A DNA stretch of 64,000 nucleotides, taken from positions 1,107-65,106 of IMG/VR virus record IMGVR_UViG_3300031852_000001; one strand, written 5' to 3'. The DNA is from a virus. Lineage: Duplodnaviria > Caudoviricetes. A program made the position numbers and the translations under genes. The notes under the pieces were generated by a model. The model was not told the DNA's origin. It ran no database searches and saw nothing but the letters and a program-made list of their open reading frames with translations. How positions within the stretch are numbered: the first letter of the stretch is position 1; every line of letters starts with the position of its first letter. Below, one piece after another: positions 26,640 to 59,771 of the stretch.

Positions 26640-26675
26640 TTTCATAAGCCTGCTGATTGTCCGGTAGTATATTTC

Positions 26676-26762
26676 TCGGCCGGCTGGAGATTCCCCCAAG
26701 CGCTCGGCCGGCCGAACCTGGGGCGGGCGGGACTGTTTTCCCCCCGGATTGGGTTCCGTCCG
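26676..26762 (+). ncRNA. Candidate 6C-like small RNA (two hairpins with C-rich loops)
   Basis: 11-bp stem with C5 loop and 10-bp stem with C6 loop; G-U pairs favour + strand. Confidence 0.55.
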
Positions 26763-26779
26763 TCTCTTGTACCGGACAC

Positions 26780-26846
26780 ACAAAAAAGCCCCCCACCTGA
26801 GAGTCCTGTCTCTCGTCTGTCGCACAGATGGTGGGGGGCTTTTTGT
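26780..26846. terminator. Bidirectional terminator at convergence of the two arms
   Basis: ACAAAAAAGCCCCCCACC...GGTGGGGGGCTTTTTGT. Confidence 0.9.
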
Positions 26847-26853
26847 CGTTTAA

Positions 26854-27072
26854 CTAGAGCTTCGGTGAGGGGAACAGCACCAGTCGGGTAATGATTGCCA
26901 GGGTAATCATGGCGAGTCCCTGGAGCCAGGTGATGTGGACAGCTCCACCCGTTGCTGCCGGCACCAGCAGCATGAGGGCCATTGACAGCAGCGTAAGGAC
27001 GATTGCTGCCACAACGAATCCCAGGAGGATCTGACCGGCCGCGAGGGCAAGGATGGTTTTCACTTTAGACAT
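26854..27072 (-). CDS. Small membrane protein
   Basis: Two hydrophobic segments. Confidence 0.65.
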   Translation of the reverse strand: MSKVKTILALAAGQILLGFVVAAIVLTLLSMALMLLVPAATGGAVHITWLQGLAMITLAIITRLVLFPSPKL

Positions 27073-27649
27073 TGGTGAGGTCAGTCACTTTCACTTGGTG
27101 GAGCTTGAGGTTCAGGTTGTTGGTGATCCGTACCAGGGCACGGTCAGCGGTCATGCGTGACGCGGCATCGCTACGGTCAAAGGATTCGCCCAGGCCATAC
27201 TTGCGAAAGAGGATCTGCTTCTGATGCAAGCTCAGCTTGTCGAACTCGGTGCGGACGTCAATGCGTCCGTCGATATCCGGCACGTCCTCCACGTTGGCCC
27301 ACACGGCATCCTTGAGGTACGTCTCCACAATCTCCGGGGTGTAGATGAAGTTGCCCATGGCGTGCATCCGGTCAATGCGTTCCTTGACCAAGTACTTACG
27401 TGCTGACTTAGTTGCGAGGTCCGCAATACCCCTCTCGGTGTACCCGTCAAGGTGCTGCAGGTTCTCACCAATGAACAGCCAAATGGACTGGTTCACATCA
27501 TCAACCGTGCAGTACTCCGCGCCCTTGTGCTCGCGCTTGGCGATCTTGGAAACCATCTCCGCGTGCATCATGTGCAGCTCACGGAAACGAATGTTTTCAG
27601 GCATCTTCTTCTTTCGTCGGGCGAACATACGCCCGGTAGTGTTGGTCAT
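27065..27649 (-). CDS. Phage RNA polymerase sigma-factor-like protein
   Basis: Region 2-like (VSKIAKR..DDVNQSIWL) and region 4-like (KLSLHQKQILFRKY) segments. Confidence 0.65.
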   Translation of the reverse strand: MTNTTGRMFARRKKKMPENIRFRELHMMHAEMVSKIAKREHKGAEYCTVDDVNQSIWLFIGENLQHLDGYTERGIADLATKSARKYLVKERIDRMHAMGNFIYTPEIVETYLKDAVWANVEDVPDIDGRIDVRTEFDKLSLHQKQILFRKYGLGESFDRSDAASRMTADRALVRITNNLNLKLHQVKVTDLTNV

Positions 27650-27881: not shown

Positions 27882-29025
27882 GGGCCTTGCCCCCTTCTGT
27901 GGTGAAGATCAGCGCACCAGGTGCGCCACGGTCCCCGGTGCGGTGCCGCCACCAGGTGGATTCCTGCTCTTGTGCCGGCGTCATGATCCAGGTCCGGTCA
28001 CCCTTGGTATCGAGCTGGAAACTGTGGCCGTGAGCGCTTACCGCCACGTCGGCCTGGTAAAGGTCCGGGTAGCGGCGGTCAAACGCTGAGCCCTGCCACC
28101 ACTGCCAGTGCTTACCTCGCGGGTGTTGATGCCCGTGGTAGTGGTGGATGACTGTCCCATTGACGTCCAGGGTTACGCCCAGTTCGTCCTTGCGGGGGAC
28201 GAATGTCTCTACGTGCCCATACACTGCAGGGTTGAGAGCCATGGCATCTGTCACTGCCACCAGTGCATCCACGGCAAAGCTGTCATCGTAGGTGGTCATC
28301 CCAGGACTACGGACAGCCTCATCATGGTTGCCAGGAACGCTTACAACCGTGAGCCGTTCCGTGTGCGGTGCGAACTGGTCAATCGCGTAGAGGAATACCC
28401 GGCGCGTAAGGCGTAATTGTTCAGTGAGGGTAAGCTCTGTCCGCCAGGCGTTCTTACCGCCCTGGCTGACGAATCCTTCAAGGCAATCTCCCATGAATGC
28501 GATGTGCGCGAACGCGGTTCGCTTCTTGCGAGACTCCCGAAACTCAGCCGCAGCGTTATCGATACTTTGGATAACACGGTCGATAGTTCCCGCAGTGCCG
28601 TCGCCATCTGCCTTACCAAACTGGTAATCGCCGTTCGCAAGGTTGAAAGTCCCTGCTCCACGCCCTGGCTTAGGCGCGGTCTTGCGTCGCTTGACATGAC
28701 TAAGTAGTTCCTCAATTGAGTGGTTACTAGGGGATATACGCTGGACATTGAACCGAAAGCTGGTCAGCTCTTGGATTCCGGAAGGGGTTTGAGCCTCCCA
28801 TGTGGAGTGTCGAATAGGACCGACAATTTCCCAGTCCTCTCCATCAAATCCAGCATTGGCAAGCAGGACGGGTCCGCGTGCGTCCGGATCCACTGAGCCA
28901 CGAGTCGTGACGGTACCCTTATCTCCAACGACTTCCTTCCCAGCCTGCCAGCCCTTGGGGGCTTGCCGCTGCACCGCTGCCAGCTCTACGGCTGGCTTAG
29001 TGGCCAGCATGTCTACAAGGCTCAC
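27862..29025 (-). CDS. Metallophosphoesterase (calcineurin-like)
   Basis: GDYQFGK, MGDCLEG, PGNHDE, HGH, AHGH motifs. Confidence 0.85.
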   Translation of the reverse strand: MSLVDMLATKPAVELAAVQRQAPKGWQAGKEVVGDKGTVTTRGSVDPDARGPVLLANAGFDGEDWEIVGPIRHSTWEAQTPSGIQELTSFRFNVQRISPSNHSIEELLSHVKRRKTAPKPGRGAGTFNLANGDYQFGKADGDGTAGTIDRVIQSIDNAAAEFRESRKKRTAFAHIAFMGDCLEGFVSQGGKNAWRTELTLTEQLRLTRRVFLYAIDQFAPHTERLTVVSVPGNHDEAVRSPGMTTYDDSFAVDALVAVTDAMALNPAVYGHVETFVPRKDELGVTLDVNGTVIHHYHGHQHPRGKHWQWWQGSAFDRRYPDLYQADVAVSAHGHSFQLDTKGDRTWIMTPAQEQESTWWRHRTGDRGAPGALIFTTEGGKARDYSIV

Positions 29026-29910: not shown

Positions 29911-30134
29911 GCGTTGGGCCTCCATTCGACCTCAACAAAGGTGCGGGTGAACTCCGAGTTTTCCCCGTAGGTCACGCGGAGCTGCCCCTTGGCCGGATCC
30001 ACACTGTGGCGCTCCAGTGCTGCAAGCACGTCGCTGATTGCGAACCGCGTGGCCAGAAGGTTTGACCCGCCCGTTGCCAGGAATGCGTTGCTCTCGGGGA
30101 GCGGGGCACGGCTGTAGTAAACCTGATCGGTCAT
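29907..30134 (-). CDS. Hypothetical protein
   Basis: Coupled ORF. Confidence 0.55.
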   Translation of the reverse strand: MTDQVYYSRAPLPESNAFLATGGSNLLATRFAISDVLAALERHSVDPAKGQLRVTYGENSEFTRTFVEVEWRPNA

Positions 30135-33489: not shown

Positions 33490-33505
33490 ATATACGCTTG
33501 ACAAT
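33490..33505 (-). promoter_or_regulatory. Copy of repeated motif ATTGTCAAGCGTATAT
   Basis: Near-identical copies at 28734, 33600, 47199, 55609. Confidence 0.6.
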
Positions 33506-33599: not shown

Positions 33600-33615
33600 A
33601 TATACGCTGGACAAT
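33600..33615 (-). promoter_or_regulatory. Copy of repeated motif ATTGTCCAGCGTATAT
   Basis: Intergenic repeat. Confidence 0.6.
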
Positions 33616-35516: not shown

Positions 35517-36062
35517 CTAGTTTAGGATCGGCCCAGTCAGGAGTTGTTCCACCACTGCGGGCGGCACGATCCTCTCCGTCATCCCCGATGAGGGCTCGGG
35601 GGTGAGGATGGGCTTGGCTTTTTTTTTGAGCGGAACCTTCGGCAGTCGGAAGATCCCCTCATCGGTGGGCTCCCGCTTGACGTAGAAGAAGCCTCCCTTG
35701 CGGCTGGCGTCGTTCGGCGGTGCCTCCGGGTGGTAGTCCAGAACCACGTCGGCGTCCTTCATTGCCTGCAGCCAGGTATCAAGAAGGTGCTGCTCGGTTG
35801 GGTTGAGCACCTGGCCCTTCTTCTGCCGCATGATGGCCCGGAGTCGCTGAGCGACTGCCGTGGACCTGTGGATGGGGTGGATGGGCCAGGGAATGTGGTC
35901 CTGGTATGTCTCTTTAGTTTCTGTGAAGCCGGCACGCTCCAAGGCCTTCCACACTGCAGCCTCGGTTACGTCATATTCTTCCGCGATGCGCTTCAGCTTC
36001 CACCCCTGCGCCCTGAGCTGACGCAGGACGGTGTTGTCTGGCAACTTTCTTGGTGCGGCCAT
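35517..36062 (-). CDS. Immunity repressor, L5 gp71-like
   Basis: N-terminal HTH (KRIAEEYDVTEAAV), IPW, QRLR, VVLDYHP..PP..GGFFYV.R pattern shared with cluster A repressors. Confidence 0.8.
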   Translation of the reverse strand: MAAPRKLPDNTVLRQLRAQGWKLKRIAEEYDVTEAAVWKALERAGFTETKETYQDHIPWPIHPIHRSTAVAQRLRAIMRQKKGQVLNPTEQHLLDTWLQAMKDADVVLDYHPEAPPNDASRKGGFFYVKREPTDEGIFRLPKVPLKKKAKPILTPEPSSGMTERIVPPAVVEQLLTGPILN

Positions 36063-36112
36063 TCTCTTATCTTCTCCCCGAATTGTTTTCTTGGATGGCC
36101 CCCGGCCCCCAA

Positions 36113-37523: not shown

Positions 37524-37559
37524 GAGAGCCCTACCGGCCCCCCAATACGGTAGGGCTCT
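37524..37559. terminator. Hairpin between convergent genes
   Basis: GAGAGCCCTACCG/CGGTAGGGCTCTC. Confidence 0.7.
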
Positions 37560-37681
37560 CGTCGTCTGATAAACTTTCCTGAGCATTGGACAACGTGTGG
37601 TTGTGGAGACTACCCAATGTATTCAGCCCTCGCGGACTGAACTGATCCAGGTGCCCCGTCTCGCGGCGGGGCATCTGCCAT

Positions 37682-47198: not shown

Positions 47199-47214
47199 AT
47201 ATACGTTGGACATT
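47199..47214 (-). promoter_or_regulatory. Copy of repeated motif AATGTCCAACGTATAT
   Basis: Immediately before RBS. Confidence 0.55.
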
Positions 47215-48589: not shown

Positions 48590-48847
48590 CTAAGCAGCCT
48601 TGCTGATTGGAAAGTCTACCGTAGGTATATCAATCCCAACCATTCGGAGTATGTCCAAGCAAGCGCTCCGCGCAGGTTCCTCCAGGGTGGAGAACGCTTC
48701 AACCGCACGACGCTGACGTATCTCTTGCTCAGTAGGACTTACCCATCCCGTCTCCCGAACATACATCAAGAACGACTCTTCGTCTTGAGTTTCGGCCGCT
48801 TCCTGCAACTCTTGTGTGTCTGTGTAGATCGCCTTCATCGCGCCCAT
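48590..48847 (-). CDS. Hypothetical protein
   Basis: RBS GGGAG. Confidence 0.6.
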   Translation of the reverse strand: MGAMKAIYTDTQELQEAAETQDEESFLMYVRETGWVSPTEQEIRQRRAVEAFSTLEEPARSACLDILRMVGIDIPTVDFPISKAA

Positions 48848-48906
48848 GGTGACTCCCTGTGTGTGTGTTTGTCTAGGTTCAATATATCGTACTTGACATT
48901 GGTGGC

Positions 48907-55592: not shown

Positions 55593-55608
55593 TGCAAACC
55601 TCCGTTAG

Positions 55609-55624
55609 ATATACGCTTGACGAT
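55609..55624 (-). promoter_or_regulatory. Copy of repeated motif ATCGTCAAGCGTATAT
   Basis: Immediately before GGAGG RBS. Confidence 0.55.
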
Positions 55625-55629
55625 CCAGA

Positions 55630-56043
55630 CTATGCGACCTGCTTGGTGTTCAAGTCCAGGCGGTCCAGCACGGACGGATCCTGCCGCAGCGTGGCGATGG
55701 TGGACTCCCACGCAGCTTCCAGAGCCTTAGCGCTGTAGCGGGGGCAGGGGACGGACTGGAACCGCAGGTTATGGGCGCGGTTCATCGGCTCCCAGCGGCT
55801 CACAGCGAACGCGCTGCCGTCCGGGTTTTCCCGCGCTTCAATGTGGGCGGTGACGCTGAACGCCTTGCCCTCCTTGTAGTGGGACACGGACAGTTCAAGG
55901 TGGATGGTGCTCTTGCCATCCTCGCCGTCGCCCAGCTTGACGGACGCTTCCAGACGGCGGGACGCCTCACCCTTATAGTTGGGCCGGCCTTCCTTCTTGC
56001 CGGTGGCCAGTTCCTCAACGATGGCTGCAAAATCACGGGACAT
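55630..56043 (-). CDS. Hypothetical protein
   Basis: AC-rich leader plus AAGGAG. Confidence 0.65.
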   Translation of the reverse strand: MSRDFAAIVEELATGKKEGRPNYKGEASRRLEASVKLGDGEDGKSTIHLELSVSHYKEGKAFSVTAHIEARENPDGSAFAVSRWEPMNRAHNLRFQSVPCPRYSAKALEAAWESTIATLRQDPSVLDRLDLNTKQVA

Positions 56044-56080
56044 GGTTACTCCTTGTTTGTTTGTTTGTGCTGACCGTATG

Positions 56081-56123
56081 GCCACACCAACCCACGGGAT
56101 GACCCGTGAGTCAGTGAAGCTAG
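56081..56123 (-). other. Conserved intercistronic RNA stem, copy A
   Basis: CUAGCUU-CACUGACUCACGGG/CCCGUGGGUUGGUG-UGGC. Confidence 0.65.
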
Positions 56124-56491
56124 GCGGTGTAGTTGTAAACCCGGAAGGTCACCATGGCACTAACGCCATTGTGCGCTTTGGCCTGATCGTGGTGGAAGAA
56201 CCACACTTTGCCCTCCCGGACCTCATCCGTCAGGGTGAGTGCAGCCTTCTTGATGCTCGGATCGAGTGATCCAGAGTAGGAGACATACCCCTCACCCAAG
56301 TAGTAGGAGCCGTGAGGGAACAGCAGGTCGGAGGTCTGGATCGAGTCGCCCCAATCGTGGGTGAACCGTCGCAACTCAGCCTCGCCGGGGAACCTTACAA
56401 AGTCCCCAACGCGCGGCCCCTCCCGCTTATCCAGCTCGGCCTTTCGGAATGCCAGGATAAATGCGTCCCGCTCATCAAATTCCGGGCTCAT
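56120..56491 (-). CDS. Hypothetical protein
   Basis: GPRVGDFV...SYSGSLDP motif. Confidence 0.65.
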   Translation of the reverse strand: MSPEFDERDAFILAFRKAELDKREGPRVGDFVRFPGEAELRRFTHDWGDSIQTSDLLFPHGSYYLGEGYVSYSGSLDPSIKKAALTLTDEVREGKVWFFHHDQAKAHNGVSAMVTFRVYNYTA

Positions 56492-57135
56492 TTGGTTGCT
56501 CCTTTTGCTTTACGGATGAGTCGCTGCATGTTGTCCAGGACTGTTGCGGGGATTGGTGCCACCAGCCATGCGTTGCCGTACTTGTAGCCCGGTGCAACCT
56601 CGTGGCAGACAACCGTCTCACCCTTGTAGAAGCGCTCCATGGCATCAGCGGGCATGTGGCGGCACCCGGCGTGCATGTCGTTCAGGTGCCACGCCTTCCA
56701 TAGGCGGTGAACATGCTTGATGCCTTCCAGCGTCCAACCCTCGGCCGGCGTGGTGATGTTCAGCAGCTCATCGAGCATCTGCCCCGCGCCGTCCCAGTCA
56801 TCAGACCGCTTGCCCTTGAGCACGGTATGACCGGATGCACTGAAGCGGATCACGGTATCCGTGACATGCTCATGAGTGATAGTCCGCTGCGATGGGTAGG
56901 ACTCACGCTTGGACAGTTCCAAGTGGACATAGACCCGCGTCCCGTTCGCCGTCGTACCCAGCAGGGCATCGGCTTCCATGTCCTGCCACTCGGCAGGTTC
57001 GGTACCCCACCCCTCATCCTTGATGGCGAGGTCAACCGACTTAGTTTGGCTACGGAGAATGTAGGAAAACGCCTGATTCTCAGTGAATGGACCGGCCAGA
57101 AACTCGCCGTCACGAGTCACGTTTACAAAGTTCAT
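56488..57135 (-). CDS. Hypothetical protein
   Basis: WKAWHLNDMHAGC, YKYGNAW motif. Confidence 0.7.
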   Translation of the reverse strand: MNFVNVTRDGEFLAGPFTENQAFSYILRSQTKSVDLAIKDEGWGTEPAEWQDMEADALLGTTANGTRVYVHLELSKRESYPSQRTITHEHVTDTVIRFSASGHTVLKGKRSDDWDGAGQMLDELLNITTPAEGWTLEGIKHVHRLWKAWHLNDMHAGCRHMPADAMERFYKGETVVCHEVAPGYKYGNAWLVAPIPATVLDNMQRLIRKAKGATK

Positions 57136-57172
57136 TGCTACCCCTTGAGGTTGTTTGTGTGTTGATGTAGTT

Positions 57173-57202
57173 ACTCTACTACGTACTTACTTAGTTGGTC
57201 AA
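57173..57202 (-). promoter_or_regulatory. SigA-type promoter
   Basis: TTGACC-18-TAGAGT with AAGTAAGTACGT spacer. Confidence 0.7.
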
Positions 57203-57585
57203 GCCCACTGGACGCCGTAGTACTTGACGTTATGCCCCCGCAGCTCACCCTTGAGTGCATCTTGCATGATGGCATCGGCCCGGTCCAGGTCCGGGGCGTA
57301 CCCATCTATCTCATGCATCTCCCGGCCCCGCTTGATGGTGCCCTTGAATGCCCGGAGCCCTTCCCCTGTGTCAGAGTGCCAGCGGTAGGTACGGATGGCA
57401 CCGCCCACCCATATCTGGCAAGCCTCAGCACCAACCCACCTGAAGCCCTGGGAAAACAGGGCCGATGAGTGATCCAGCACCCGCTGCATCTTGGGCTGGC
57501 CCATATTGCCGCCCGGAATGAGTGCCCAGTAATACCCAGGCTTGGCACCCGTTGCCTTCATGTGATCTGCGAACGTCTCAGTCAC
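57199..57585 (-). CDS. Hypothetical protein
   Basis: Coupled ORF. Confidence 0.6.
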   Translation of the reverse strand: MTETFADHMKATGAKPGYYWALIPGGNMGQPKMQRVLDHSSALFSQGFRWVGAEACQIWVGGAIRTYRWHSDTGEGLRAFKGTIKRGREMHEIDGYAPDLDRADAIMQDALKGELRGHNVKYYGVQWA

Positions 57586-57953
57586 TTTGCAGCCTCCACC
57601 ATGAACACGTTGACCTTGCCGGGGGACAGTGCGGACGGAGCCGTGACGTAACCCGCGCCCAGCTCCACGCCCTCCAGAGCATGGCCCAGGTATGACACCC
57701 GGAAGCCTGACTCCTGCAATTCGGCCGGCACGGATTCAGCGCGGAATGCACCCCATGCCGCCGTACGTTCGATGGGATTGGTGCCGCACACCTTGTTACC
57801 GTGAATCCAGCAATCCCACCCCGGATCATCTTCCTGGATCTGGACCGATGCCACCGGCTGGACCGGCTGGACGTGCTGGACCGGCTCCGGTGCAGCGCAC
57901 CCCATCAGTGCAGCAGCTACAGCGATAACACTTGCAAGTACCTTGAGTTTCAT
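57582..57953 (-). CDS. Small lipoprotein
   Basis: Lipobox LMG-C; EDDPGWDC...GNKVCG motif. Confidence 0.7.
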   Translation of the reverse strand: MKLKVLASVIAVAAALMGCAAPEPVQHVQPVQPVASVQIQEDDPGWDCWIHGNKVCGTNPIERTAAWGAFRAESVPAELQESGFRVSYLGHALEGVELGAGYVTAPSALSPGKVNVFMVEAAK

Positions 57954-57997
57954 TGCATCCCCTTGAGTTTGTGTGTGTGTTTCATGCAGGCCATATA

Positions 57998-58044
57998 GCC
58001 ATACCAACCACCGGACATTGCAGCCCGGTAGCCAGTAAAGCTAG
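57998..58044 (-). other. Conserved intercistronic RNA stem, copy B
   Basis: CUAGCUU-UACUGGCUACCGGGC/GUCCGGUGGUUGGUA-UGGC. Confidence 0.65.
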
Positions 58045-58048
58045 GTGG

Positions 58049-58207
58049 TTAGTTCAAGCTCCCATCCCCGTTGATATCCCCAAAGTCCACGGCATACCGC
58101 CCTACCCAGTACGGATCAGTAGTGCCATAGCTTGACTGGCAATCATCCTCGCCAGCCTCCCGGAGCATTATGTCCCCAAGCTCCACGAATGACTTACCCG
58201 ATGCCAT
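58049..58207 (-). CDS. 52-aa hypothetical protein (not in ORF track)
   Basis: MASGKSFVELGD...; starts 3 nt after clamp stop. Confidence 0.45.
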   Translation of the reverse strand: MASGKSFVELGDIMLREAGEDDCQSSYGTTDPYWVGRYAVDFGDINGDGSLN

Positions 58208-58210
58208 GAC

Positions 58211-59452
58211 CTACGCACCCGGCAGACGTACGGGCATCAGCAGGTGGGAGATATCGGCCTGACCCGCTGCCTCGAACATGGCAGGCTTGGGAGCCGTGGT
58301 GTGGTGGATCTGGACTACCTGCCCTTTCATGTCCTTGAGGATATCGATCAGGTAGTGCGGGTTGAATGCCACGGCAAACCCACGCTGCCCACGTTCGGCG
58401 TGGTACGGCATGAACGCCTGGGCTTGAGCATCCTCACCCGTGCCAGCATCCACCCGCAGTGAGTCAATGCCGTTGTATGTCAGGCGGACCGGAGTGTTAC
58501 GTTCGGCCGTGACTGCCACACTCTGGACATTGGCCAGCAGCAGGTCAGCATCCATTTCAAACACGATGGGCGTGGTGTCCGGGAACAGGCTCCGGATCTT
58601 GGGGTAGTCCCCATCCACGGCCAGCGTACCCAAGCTCACGTCGCCCTGGTGGAAGCTCACACGGTACCCGTAGCCAGCCATGGCCTCATGGAAGTGCAGC
58701 TCAATCCTGCCACCCTTGGGGGACAGGTGACGCTTGAATGCCTTCCACGTCTTGGACCGGACCAGCACGGAGTACTCGCCAGCGTAGTCATGCTCACCAA
58801 GGGGACGCTCGATGAACAACTCAGCCAGAGTCAGCCGGTAGCGGTCAGTTGACAGCAAGGTCATCTCACGCCCCTTGACCTCAATCTTGATGCCGGTCAG
58901 GATCGGCAGGGTGTCATCCGTGGATGCACTAATCATGGCCGAATCCATGCGTCGGATGAACTCGGCAGCATCCACCGCAACCCACGTATCGCACTCCATG
59001 CTGGGCTGGACAGGGTACATTTCATCGTCCATGGGAGCCAAGGTGAACGTGGTTCCGTTGACATTGACCAGCACCTTAGTAGGCTCCAGCTCAAGCCTTT
59101 CCTGGCTAATGGTGACCTGCCATGCATCGCTCACCCGCTTGGTGGCACGCTTGCCCGCCGCAACCAAGATATCCAGCAGCATCTTGTGGTTGACCAGCGT
59201 CGAACGGTTGGCCGAACCGCTGGCACCGCTGACCTCGATCAGGGTTGCAGTCTCATAGTCGAACCGCGACACCGACACTACGCCCAGGGAATCGGCAGCG
59301 ATCTTGACACCTGCCAGCACCGGCACCGGGACGCGGGTAGCAATGCCAGCGCCAGCAGCCTTGACAGCGGCGATCCATGCACCCAGCGAGCCCGTAGCGG
59401 TGAACGTGGTTACTGCTACAGCGGACGGAGTTTCAACGGTGGTTACAGACAT
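58211..59452 (-). CDS. dnaN: DNA polymerase III sliding clamp (beta)
   Basis: ASTDDTLPILTG, TDRYRL, GDYPKIRSLFP, AFNPHYL, LLMPVRLPG. Confidence 0.9.
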   Translation of the reverse strand: MSVTTVETPSAVAVTTFTATGSLGAWIAAVKAAGAGIATRVPVPVLAGVKIAADSLGVVSVSRFDYETATLIEVSGASGSANRSTLVNHKMLLDILVAAGKRATKRVSDAWQVTISQERLELEPTKVLVNVNGTTFTLAPMDDEMYPVQPSMECDTWVAVDAAEFIRRMDSAMISASTDDTLPILTGIKIEVKGREMTLLSTDRYRLTLAELFIERPLGEHDYAGEYSVLVRSKTWKAFKRHLSPKGGRIELHFHEAMAGYGYRVSFHQGDVSLGTLAVDGDYPKIRSLFPDTTPIVFEMDADLLLANVQSVAVTAERNTPVRLTYNGIDSLRVDAGTGEDAQAQAFMPYHAERGQRGFAVAFNPHYLIDILKDMKGQVVQIHHTTAPKPAMFEAAGQADISHLLMPVRLPGA

Positions 59453-59498
59453 GGTTATCTCCTTGAAGATTGTTTGTGTGTTTGTGTTGACTCATCGA

Positions 59499-59540
59499 GC
59501 CATACCGGCCCACGGGTGTCCCGTGGACCAGTAAAGCTAG
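59499..59540 (-). other. Conserved intercistronic RNA stem, copy C
   Basis: CUAGCUU-UACUGGUCCACGGG/CCCGUGGGCCGGUA-UGGC. Confidence 0.65.
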
Positions 59541-59541
59541 A

Positions 59542-59733
59542 TCAGTAGACGTCGTTGAAGCAGTAGGCGTCCAGCACTTCCCCCGTGTCCGGATCCAGCG
59601 TGATCCGCCAATCTGACACATGCTCATCCTTGAAGCTCACCCGGTAGTTGCCACCCTCGATGACCTCGAACGATTCCACGGCATCCGATCCACCGTCTGA
59701 AAAGTACGCTTGCAGTGCTGCCATAAGTTCCAT
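59542..59733 (-). CDS. Hypothetical protein
   Basis: AC-rich leader plus AAGGGG. Confidence 0.6.
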   Translation of the reverse strand: MELMAALQAYFSDGGSDAVESFEVIEGGNYRVSFKDEHVSDWRITLDPDTGEVLDAYCFNDVY

Positions 59734-59771
59734 GCTGACCCCTTGAGGTTGTTTGTTTGTTTGTAGTAGCT

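Follow-up and report, generated by a model that had tools for sequence, protein, structure and literature searches.

The window analysed here is a stretch of 64,000 nucleotides that makes up nearly the whole of a 65,106-bp IMG/VR virus record with direct terminal repeats, for which completeness was rated at 100%. Both this phage and the relatives that carry the element described below are known from metagenomes only. The genes are arranged in two arms. Terminase, portal, capsid and tail genes, an amidase/LysM endolysin and an 87-aa membrane protein are encoded on the plus strand (143-26639), while a 72-aa membrane protein, a 194-aa sigma-like protein, an exonuclease/phosphoesterase, a dNMP kinase, a primase and others are encoded on the minus strand from 26854. 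The element lies in a 214-nt gap at which the rightward arm, with the structural and lysis genes, meets the leftward arm, with the early and replication genes (Table 1).

Table 1. Features of the element, its neighbouring genes and the copies of the repeated motif, in window coordinates
Feature	Position	Strand	Details and basis
Holin-like membrane protein gene, 87 aa	26376-26639	+	ORF list; phrog_32276; last gene of the rightward arm
TTCATA, weak -35-like hexamer	26641-26646	+	18 nt before the -10-like box; not conserved in more distant relatives
TAGTAT, -10-like box (TAGnnT)	26665-26670	+	Invariant columns of alignment A1
Hairpin 1	26676-26715	+	13 pairs; loop AUUCCCCCAAGCG (26690-26702), C5 at 26693-26697; folds
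Hairpin 2	26720-26766	+	15 pairs, six of them G-U/U-G; loop GUUUUCCCCCCGGAUUG (26735-26751), C6 at 26740-26745
Linker CCGGACACAC	26772-26781	+	GGACAC core; conserved; between hairpin 2 and terminator; alignments
Two-way intrinsic terminator	26782-26844	both	A6 (26782-26787), long GC-rich hairpin with arms GCCCCCCACC (26788-26797) and GGUGGGGGGC (26830-26839), U5 (26840-26844); folded on both strands
72-aa hydrophobic protein gene	26854-27072	-	Last gene of the leftward arm, converges on the element; syntenic in all relatives
194-aa sigma-factor-like protein	27065-27649	-	phrog_354 'sigma-K factor', E 6.6e-9
Copies of the repeated motif	33490-33503, 33600-33613, 47199-47212, 55609-55621	-	Motif scan
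Variants of the repeated motif	48882-48898; 28734-28747 (inside a gene)		Motif scan

The closest matches to the endolysin were found in Arthrobacter phages, and homologs of the 87-aa holin-like protein were found in Arthrobacter phages and in one Arthrobacter genome. The 'membrane protein' genes of Arthrobacter phages that match the holin adjoin endolysin or endopeptidase genes. By its protein matches the phage, which is uncultured, is of the Arthrobacter type. A Pfam search with the 194-aa sigma-like protein gave zero matches. When the whole window was scanned with Rfam at gathering thresholds, only three tRNAs were reported; these genes lie at the right end of the genome (62908-63418, plus strand) and score 53-61 bits. 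No tyrosine or serine recombinase or integrase was found in the complete genome, so nothing here points to a role of the RNA in a lysogen.

The features that an earlier note had described in the gap, namely a promoter-like pair of hexamers, two hairpins with C-rich loops and a terminator, were all found where it had placed them. The two hairpins lie side by side within 26676-26766 on the plus strand and form a strong pair that carries AUUCCCCCAAGCG and UUUUCCCCCCGGAUU in the loops. Folding of the whole 210 nt gave -106.4 kcal/mol with a z value of -6.75, and none of 200 shuffles was as good. Runs of five or more cytosines occur 146 times on the two strands of the window, and in three of them all the cytosines were observed to lie unpaired in the loop of a hairpin whose closing stem has eight or more pairs. 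Hairpin 1 is among these three, and hairpin 2 is missed by the count solely because small pairs form within its loop. Two C-loop hairpins standing side by side are therefore not background. Beyond the linker, a GC-rich hairpin is placed between an A-tract and a U-tract, which is the arrangement of a Rho-independent terminator that works in both directions. As folded, this terminator would end the plus-strand RNA and the lysis operon and also the minus-strand operon.

Relatives of the element were located by using the holin as an anchor, and the holin homologs obtained are 98-57% identical to that of the window. Five contigs were read, with holin identities of 98% (L027), 79% (L028), 73% (L031), 70% (L029) and 60% (L032). 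All five show the gene order lysin, holin, a gap of 169-218 nt and a converging small membrane protein, and the sigma-like gene comes next wherever the contig extends that far. This gene is the second-to-last of the leftward arm, and homologs of its product were identified in L027, L028 and L029. Each gap contains, in the same order, a TAGnnT box, hairpin 1, hairpin 2, the GGACAC linker and a terminator composed of an A-tract, a GC hairpin and a U-tract; the A-tract, C-run, G-run and T-tract of the terminator are retained in all six sequences. The hairpin 1 loop follows the consensus (A/U)(A/U)UCCCCC(C)AA(G/U)G across the six and the hairpin 2 loop follows UUUCCCCCCGAAUU. In the relatives both loops contain C4-C6, and hairpin 2 of L032 reads CACCCC.

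Beyond these contigs the element was not encountered. Model R1, which was built from the six sequences, scores those six at 77-102 bits, as expected by construction, and no further significant match was obtained with it elsewhere in the 64-kb window or in other loci. The element is absent from the more distant holin relatives, which comprise three proviruses and phages TripleJ and Shambre1. Zero matches were returned by a DNA-level search of isolated phages with the element region and by single-protein scans of viral contigs with the holin and with the sigma-like protein. Relatives found through the terminase and the phosphoesterase were either fragments that stop short of the element or phages, with a terminase about 50% identical, that do not carry it. 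An IUPAC pattern of hairpin 2 was also run against viral, metagenome and genome collections; among the matches listed, most were chance GC-rich stretches, and just two contigs that were already known were left after filtering. A match to this pattern in Arthrobacter celericrescens was rejected as an element, the stretch reading by eye like coding sequence. As far as these searches reach, the element belongs to a small clade of uncultured Arthrobacter-type phages.

Constancy was observed to be greater in the loops than in the stems, both in the alignment and in the loops of the individual sequences. The arms of hairpin 1 cannot be aligned among the window, L028, L029 and L032, yet 10-13 pairs are formed in each; the stem sequences of L028, L029 and L032 have been replaced with the pairing retained. 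In L031, the C-to-U changes relative to the window preserve G-U pairs. Covariation was measured on A5, a model-based alignment of the six sequences. In this alignment, which was fitted to the model, 92.8% of the pair cells hold standard pairs as compared with 36-52% when the partners are slid by 1-3 columns, nine pairs are changed on both sides as compared with 0-6 in the slid controls, and 2 of 500 shuffles attained the covariation score of 0.439. For helix 2, A5 shows 98.7% pairing and five pairs changed on both sides. Because the alignment was fitted to the model and because six related sequences, two of which (the window and L027) are nearly identical, give little statistical power, the slid controls and the replacement of the hairpin 1 arms are the stronger arguments. 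The earlier note had made its proposal depend on conservation of the stems in relatives, and in the five relatives these were found to change but to stay paired. Constant loops on changing stems are the pattern that would be expected of a contact surface.

The two-hairpin cores of all six sequences share one fold, with z values of -3.2 to -5.7 on the plus strand. The minus-strand fold, computed for four of the cores, is weaker by 5-16 kcal/mol and gives z values of -0.8 to -2.3. Hairpin 2 contains several G-U pairs in most of the six sequences, and these become A-C mismatches on the opposite strand. The G-U pairs together with the strand difference in z indicate that the functional molecule is plus-strand RNA. 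No shared open frame was found across the six sequences, even between the window and the near-identical L027. The element is a conserved, strand-specific, structured non-coding RNA of the plus strand. We consider it very improbable that the two GC-rich hairpins came together by chance, or that the element is instead a site acting at the DNA level, for example in replication, recombination or packaging. The hairpins do amount to cruciform potential in the DNA and the region is found at the strand-switch point of the genome, but, as RNA, the structure is confined to one strand by its G-U pairs, and a chance origin is opposed by the compensating changes, by the slid controls and by the finding of only three comparable C-loop hairpins in 128 kb (both strands).

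Upstream of hairpin 1, the TAG of the box, the G that precedes it and a T three bases further on were found to be invariant in all six sequences. The box reads TAGTAT, TAGCGT or TAGGAT and is always located 5-8 nt ahead of hairpin 1, and this spacing holds even where the flanks differ or where the holin stop is merely 7 nt away. The actinobacterial -10 consensus is TAnnnT and that of Streptomyces is TAG(Pu)(Pu)T, and the TAGnnT box fits both. No promoter was called by a sigma-70 consensus scan of the element region, where TTCATA-18-TAGTAT matches 8 of 12 positions by hand count. On balance, an independent promoter for the predicted RNA is somewhat favoured by this pattern. The predicted transcript would run from about 26677, at the base of hairpin 1, to 26844 and would measure 168 nt, and those of the relatives would measure 127-166 nt.

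The box also overlaps TGTCCGGTAGTATAT (26658-26672), which is a variant of the minus-strand repeat TGTC(C/A)AGCGTATAT; the box is found inside such a variant in the window and in L028. A repeated TGTC..TATAT motif had been noticed before in this DNA, and it proved to be real, as TGTC-N4-8-TATAT gave 9 matches as compared with 0.53 expected and the repeat takes the form (GAT)TGTC(C/A)AGCGTATAT. At the element, the motif is present with a different spacing. A start codon is located roughly 17-45 nt downstream at three of the four main motif sites, and at 33600 none is present within the stretch shown. The motif looks like a phage-specific promoter family for the leftward genes and is perhaps read with the phage sigma-like protein.

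The position of the element directly behind the lysis genes raises the question of whether it is no more than a structured 3' UTR of the late lysis operon, which would serve for exonuclease protection and operon insulation with no action in trans. It starts 1-37 nt after the holin stop, there is no conserved -35 and the consensus scan calls no promoter, the terminator is common to both arms, and in a read-through transcript of the window and L027 an outer helix of UGUCCGGUA with UACCGGACA would enclose both hairpins. The other four sequences have not retained this outer helix: UGUCCGGUA, ahead of the -10-like box, can pair with the linker in the window, as its fold shows, and in L027, whereas by eye this pairing is weak or shifted in the rest. 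Protection moreover needs stems and not constant loops, whereas here the loops are kept and the stems are replaced, and for such a purpose one terminator hairpin would suffice. The TAGnnT box is also invariant at the key -10 positions and stands at a fixed distance from hairpin 1. Taken with these points, a purely untranslated end is possible but unlikely. A 3'-UTR origin is itself compatible with the release of a stable fragment that acts in trans, and a stable RNA processed from the holin message would be predicted to present the same loops. Pairing of the GGACAC linker with the stretch that precedes hairpin 1, which would form a closing helix, had also been considered as a feature of the family and was dropped, being strong only in the window and L027.

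The small RNA 6C is the best understood chaperone-free small RNA of Actinobacteria, and its mycobacterial targets include replication (dnaB) and secretion genes. The earlier note had called the element 6C-like, and the architecture agrees with this, there being two C-loops and an end-to-end alignment with RF01066, but the Rfam cut-off does not (21.3 as compared with 47 bits). Like 6C, the element has two adjacent stem-loops with a C-run in each loop (C5 and C6 in the window). At relaxed thresholds, all 75 positions of RF01066 align to 26674-26768 with 21.3 bits, which corresponds to an E value of 1.6 against all families and of 0.05 for one family in the phage genome. The best RF01066 score in the relatives is 29.3 bits (L029), so that the gathering cut-off of 47 is not reached by the window or by the relatives. 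RF02833 (Scr3202) aligns in full length at the same coordinates with 21.7 bits in the window and 25.6 bits in L028, where the gathering cut-off is 52 and is not reached either. As scores below 47 and 52 bits do not show family membership, the element is to be described, from its sequence, as 6C-like and not as a demonstrated 6C member.

The 6C family (RF01066) includes B11 of mycobacteria and cgb_03605 of C. glutamicum. In common with it, the phage element has two adjacent GC-rich hairpins with a C-run of 5-6 in each loop, its loop motifs resemble the Micrococcaceae 6C loops CCCCCAAUG and CCCCCCAAAUU, and its C-rich loops would likely act on G-rich ribosome sites, as in PMC6486639. Unlike 6C with its chromosomal locus, it is phage-encoded and is located between the holin and 72-aa genes, it carries two additional parts, namely a conserved linker and a long terminator hairpin that stands apart, and its predicted length is 127-168 nt where the Rfam model has 75 positions. 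The conserved chromosomal context of 6C, which adjoins Ms1 in mycobacteria (PMC9569102), is thus not shared by the phage element. Extra copies of 6C occur on mycobacterial chromosomes and plasmids and have been ascribed to horizontal transfer (PMC9569102), and because of the plasmid copies this context is not an absolute criterion for 6C. Scr3202 of Streptomyces (RF02833) has the same two-hairpin C-loop consensus, but the element falls below its cut-off.

True 6C genes of the likely host family were recovered from at least four of 61 Micrococcaceae genomes at 40.7-51.9 bits, with a first-look filter that scores few candidates, so that the count is no measure of prevalence. Their loops, for example UCCCCCAAUG and UCCCCCCCAAAUU in L281, are alike to the phage loops by eye. 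When R1 was run unfiltered on four 3-kb host loci, the best match in each was the host 6C, at only 10-17 bits (E 0.004-0.23); the four Micrococcaceae 6C sequences themselves align poorly with one another. The likeness between the phage element and 6C, as judged from these scores, is reciprocal but weak and stays below threshold. In two Arthrobacter genomes, no 6C was found among 150 of more than 1000 candidates, a search in which the C. glutamicum control was also below the cut-off, and no additional copies turned up in a BLAST search with one host 6C. Either the phages captured a host 6C gene long ago or they converged on the same design; the likeness would fit both origins. At 1450-1500 in both L281 and L282, we noticed what looks by eye like an additional C-loop hairpin immediately before the 6C as delimited by Rfam, and the host 6C RNA of Micrococcaceae may carry three C-loops.

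Mycobacterial 6C represses translation with no chaperone by pairing its C-rich loops with G-rich ribosome sites and other unpaired G-runs, and its overexpression arrests growth via targets such as dnaB and panD (PMC6486639). By analogy, the phage RNA probably acts on G-rich ribosome-binding sites. The G-run ribosome sites of the phage itself had been put forward as targets, and these were surveyed in the region -20 to -3 of start codons chosen by anti-Shine-Dalgarno pairing. GGGG was found at 6 of 29 plus-strand genes (background 3.5%) and at 14 of 76 minus-strand genes (background 5.7%), and GGGGG at 1 of 29 and 8 of 76 genes respectively, the background for the latter being 1.1%. Such self-targets are not specific, as 18-21% of the genes carry GGGG in this region and the two arms are about equal. 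G-run sites precede the primase (31131) and the genes at 30134, 31523, 42900, 43465 and 27881, and beyond the G-run these sites show no extended match to the loops. At the primase site, which had been named as an example, the five G's can pair but nothing further pairs. The GGGGGG at 724-729, which had been ascribed to the large terminase, is followed by no ATG, GTG or TTG that opens a frame of at least 40 aa within 3-15 nt. The run is part of a gap (724-1040) of about 355 nt that separates the small-terminase-like ORF (143-682) from the large terminase, whose first canonical start is at 1038.

In-silico duplex scans of the phage genome gave no significant target. The best match in a start region was observed between loop 2 and CAAUUCGGGGAGAAGA, where 15 of 16 positions are paired by hand alignment with -23.2 kcal/mol. 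This site is located upstream of a repressor-like gene on the minus strand (36062-35517, start region 36062-36088; phrog_357, E 3.4e-17) and ranks second among all sense-strand sites genome-wide. Start regions make up 6.8% of positions and the chance expectation for the site is estimated at about 13%, so it is not significant alone.

Two further observations were made in the leftward arm. A third C-loop hairpin is present at 37524-37560 (plus strand) with 13 perfect pairs and a loop, CCCCCCAAUAC, that resembles the hairpin 1 loop; it could be the hairpin of an antisense RNA or, read on the minus strand, a terminator whose loop is G-rich. An AC-rich leader, ACAAACAA(C)CUCAAGGGG or AAGGAG, is found right before the starts of several early genes at about 55600-59750 (minus strand), for example before the starts at 59733, 57953, 57135 and 56043, and also at 48847. 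The linker GGACACACAAAAAA resembles these leaders in the same sense and not as their complement.

That no convincing mRNA target was found would also suit an RNA that binds a protein or serves as a decoy, with C-loops that titrate or recruit a host or phage protein, for example Rho, a KH-domain protein or the neighbouring phage sigma-like factor. Two similar and constant loop motifs on variable stems would be understandable in such an RNA, as would the strict synteny of the element with the sigma-like gene. We consider it improbable, as no test here indicates a protein partner and the only studied RNAs of such design, 6C/B11, act by loop-to-mRNA pairing. Rho prefers unstructured C-rich stretches of RNA.

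The reading that we prefer, with a probability of about 0.55, is that the element is a separate plus-strand small RNA whose C-loops pair with G-rich ribosome sites and which has been kept by this phage clade. Transcription would start about 7 nt after the TAGnnT -10 box and would yield an RNA of about 127-168 nt. Its two stable hairpins would hold out the C-rich loops (A/U)UCCCCC(C)AA(G/U)G and UUUCCCCCCGAAUU, and a short single-stranded GGACAC linker would follow before the RNA ends at the two-way intrinsic terminator. As described for 6C/B11, translation would be blocked, with no chaperone involved, when the loops base-pair to unpaired G-runs in ribosome-binding sites. The RNA might be directed against the host 6C regulon or against those phage genes whose ribosome sites contain GGGG(G); these targets, action in trans and transcription from the RNA's own promoter are what we infer. 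It is considerably less likely, and we put it forward as tentative, that the phage RNA is a mimic or diverged copy of the host 6C. Expressed from a promoter of its own in the course of infection, it would take over the host 6C regulon by means of the same C-rich loops. Phage ribosome sites with G-runs, among them that of the repressor-like gene at 36062, might be silenced by it as well.

Several other systems can be compared with the element. The RsaE/RoxS RNAs and RNAIII hairpins of Firmicutes also expose C-runs in their hairpin loops, which mask G-rich Shine-Dalgarno sequences, but their hosts belong to a different phylum. Base-pairing small RNAs of enterobacterial phages and prophages are Hfq-dependent and belong to Gram-negative hosts. 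In the part of the literature that we drew on for these RNAs, they are like the element in being phage-borne small RNAs with a proposed role in the regulation of host or phage mRNAs, but are unrelated to it in sequence and structure. Among the loci of actinophages, the highest transcription can come from non-coding stretches between genes, as seen for nc_1-3 of WC1 and for the genome ends of D29 and Kampy (PMC10986025). The positions of these transcripts differ from that of the element, and no C-loop design has been reported for them. The WC1 nc_2 region was rejected as an analogue, being the integrase-excise gap.

No report of a phage-borne 6C-like RNA and no phage small-RNA regulator in Actinobacteria was found in the literature searched. 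To our knowledge, work on regulatory RNAs of phages has dealt almost exclusively with enterobacteria, and Actinobacteria are without Hfq. A phage gene of the 6C design whose loops are under selection would be a natural test of whether phages use the pairing of C-loops with G-rich sites, and the element would offer a compact and portable module for silencing translation. If the tentative reading as a copy or mimic of the host 6C is true, it would represent an RNA-based host takeover or temporal switch in Actinobacteria.
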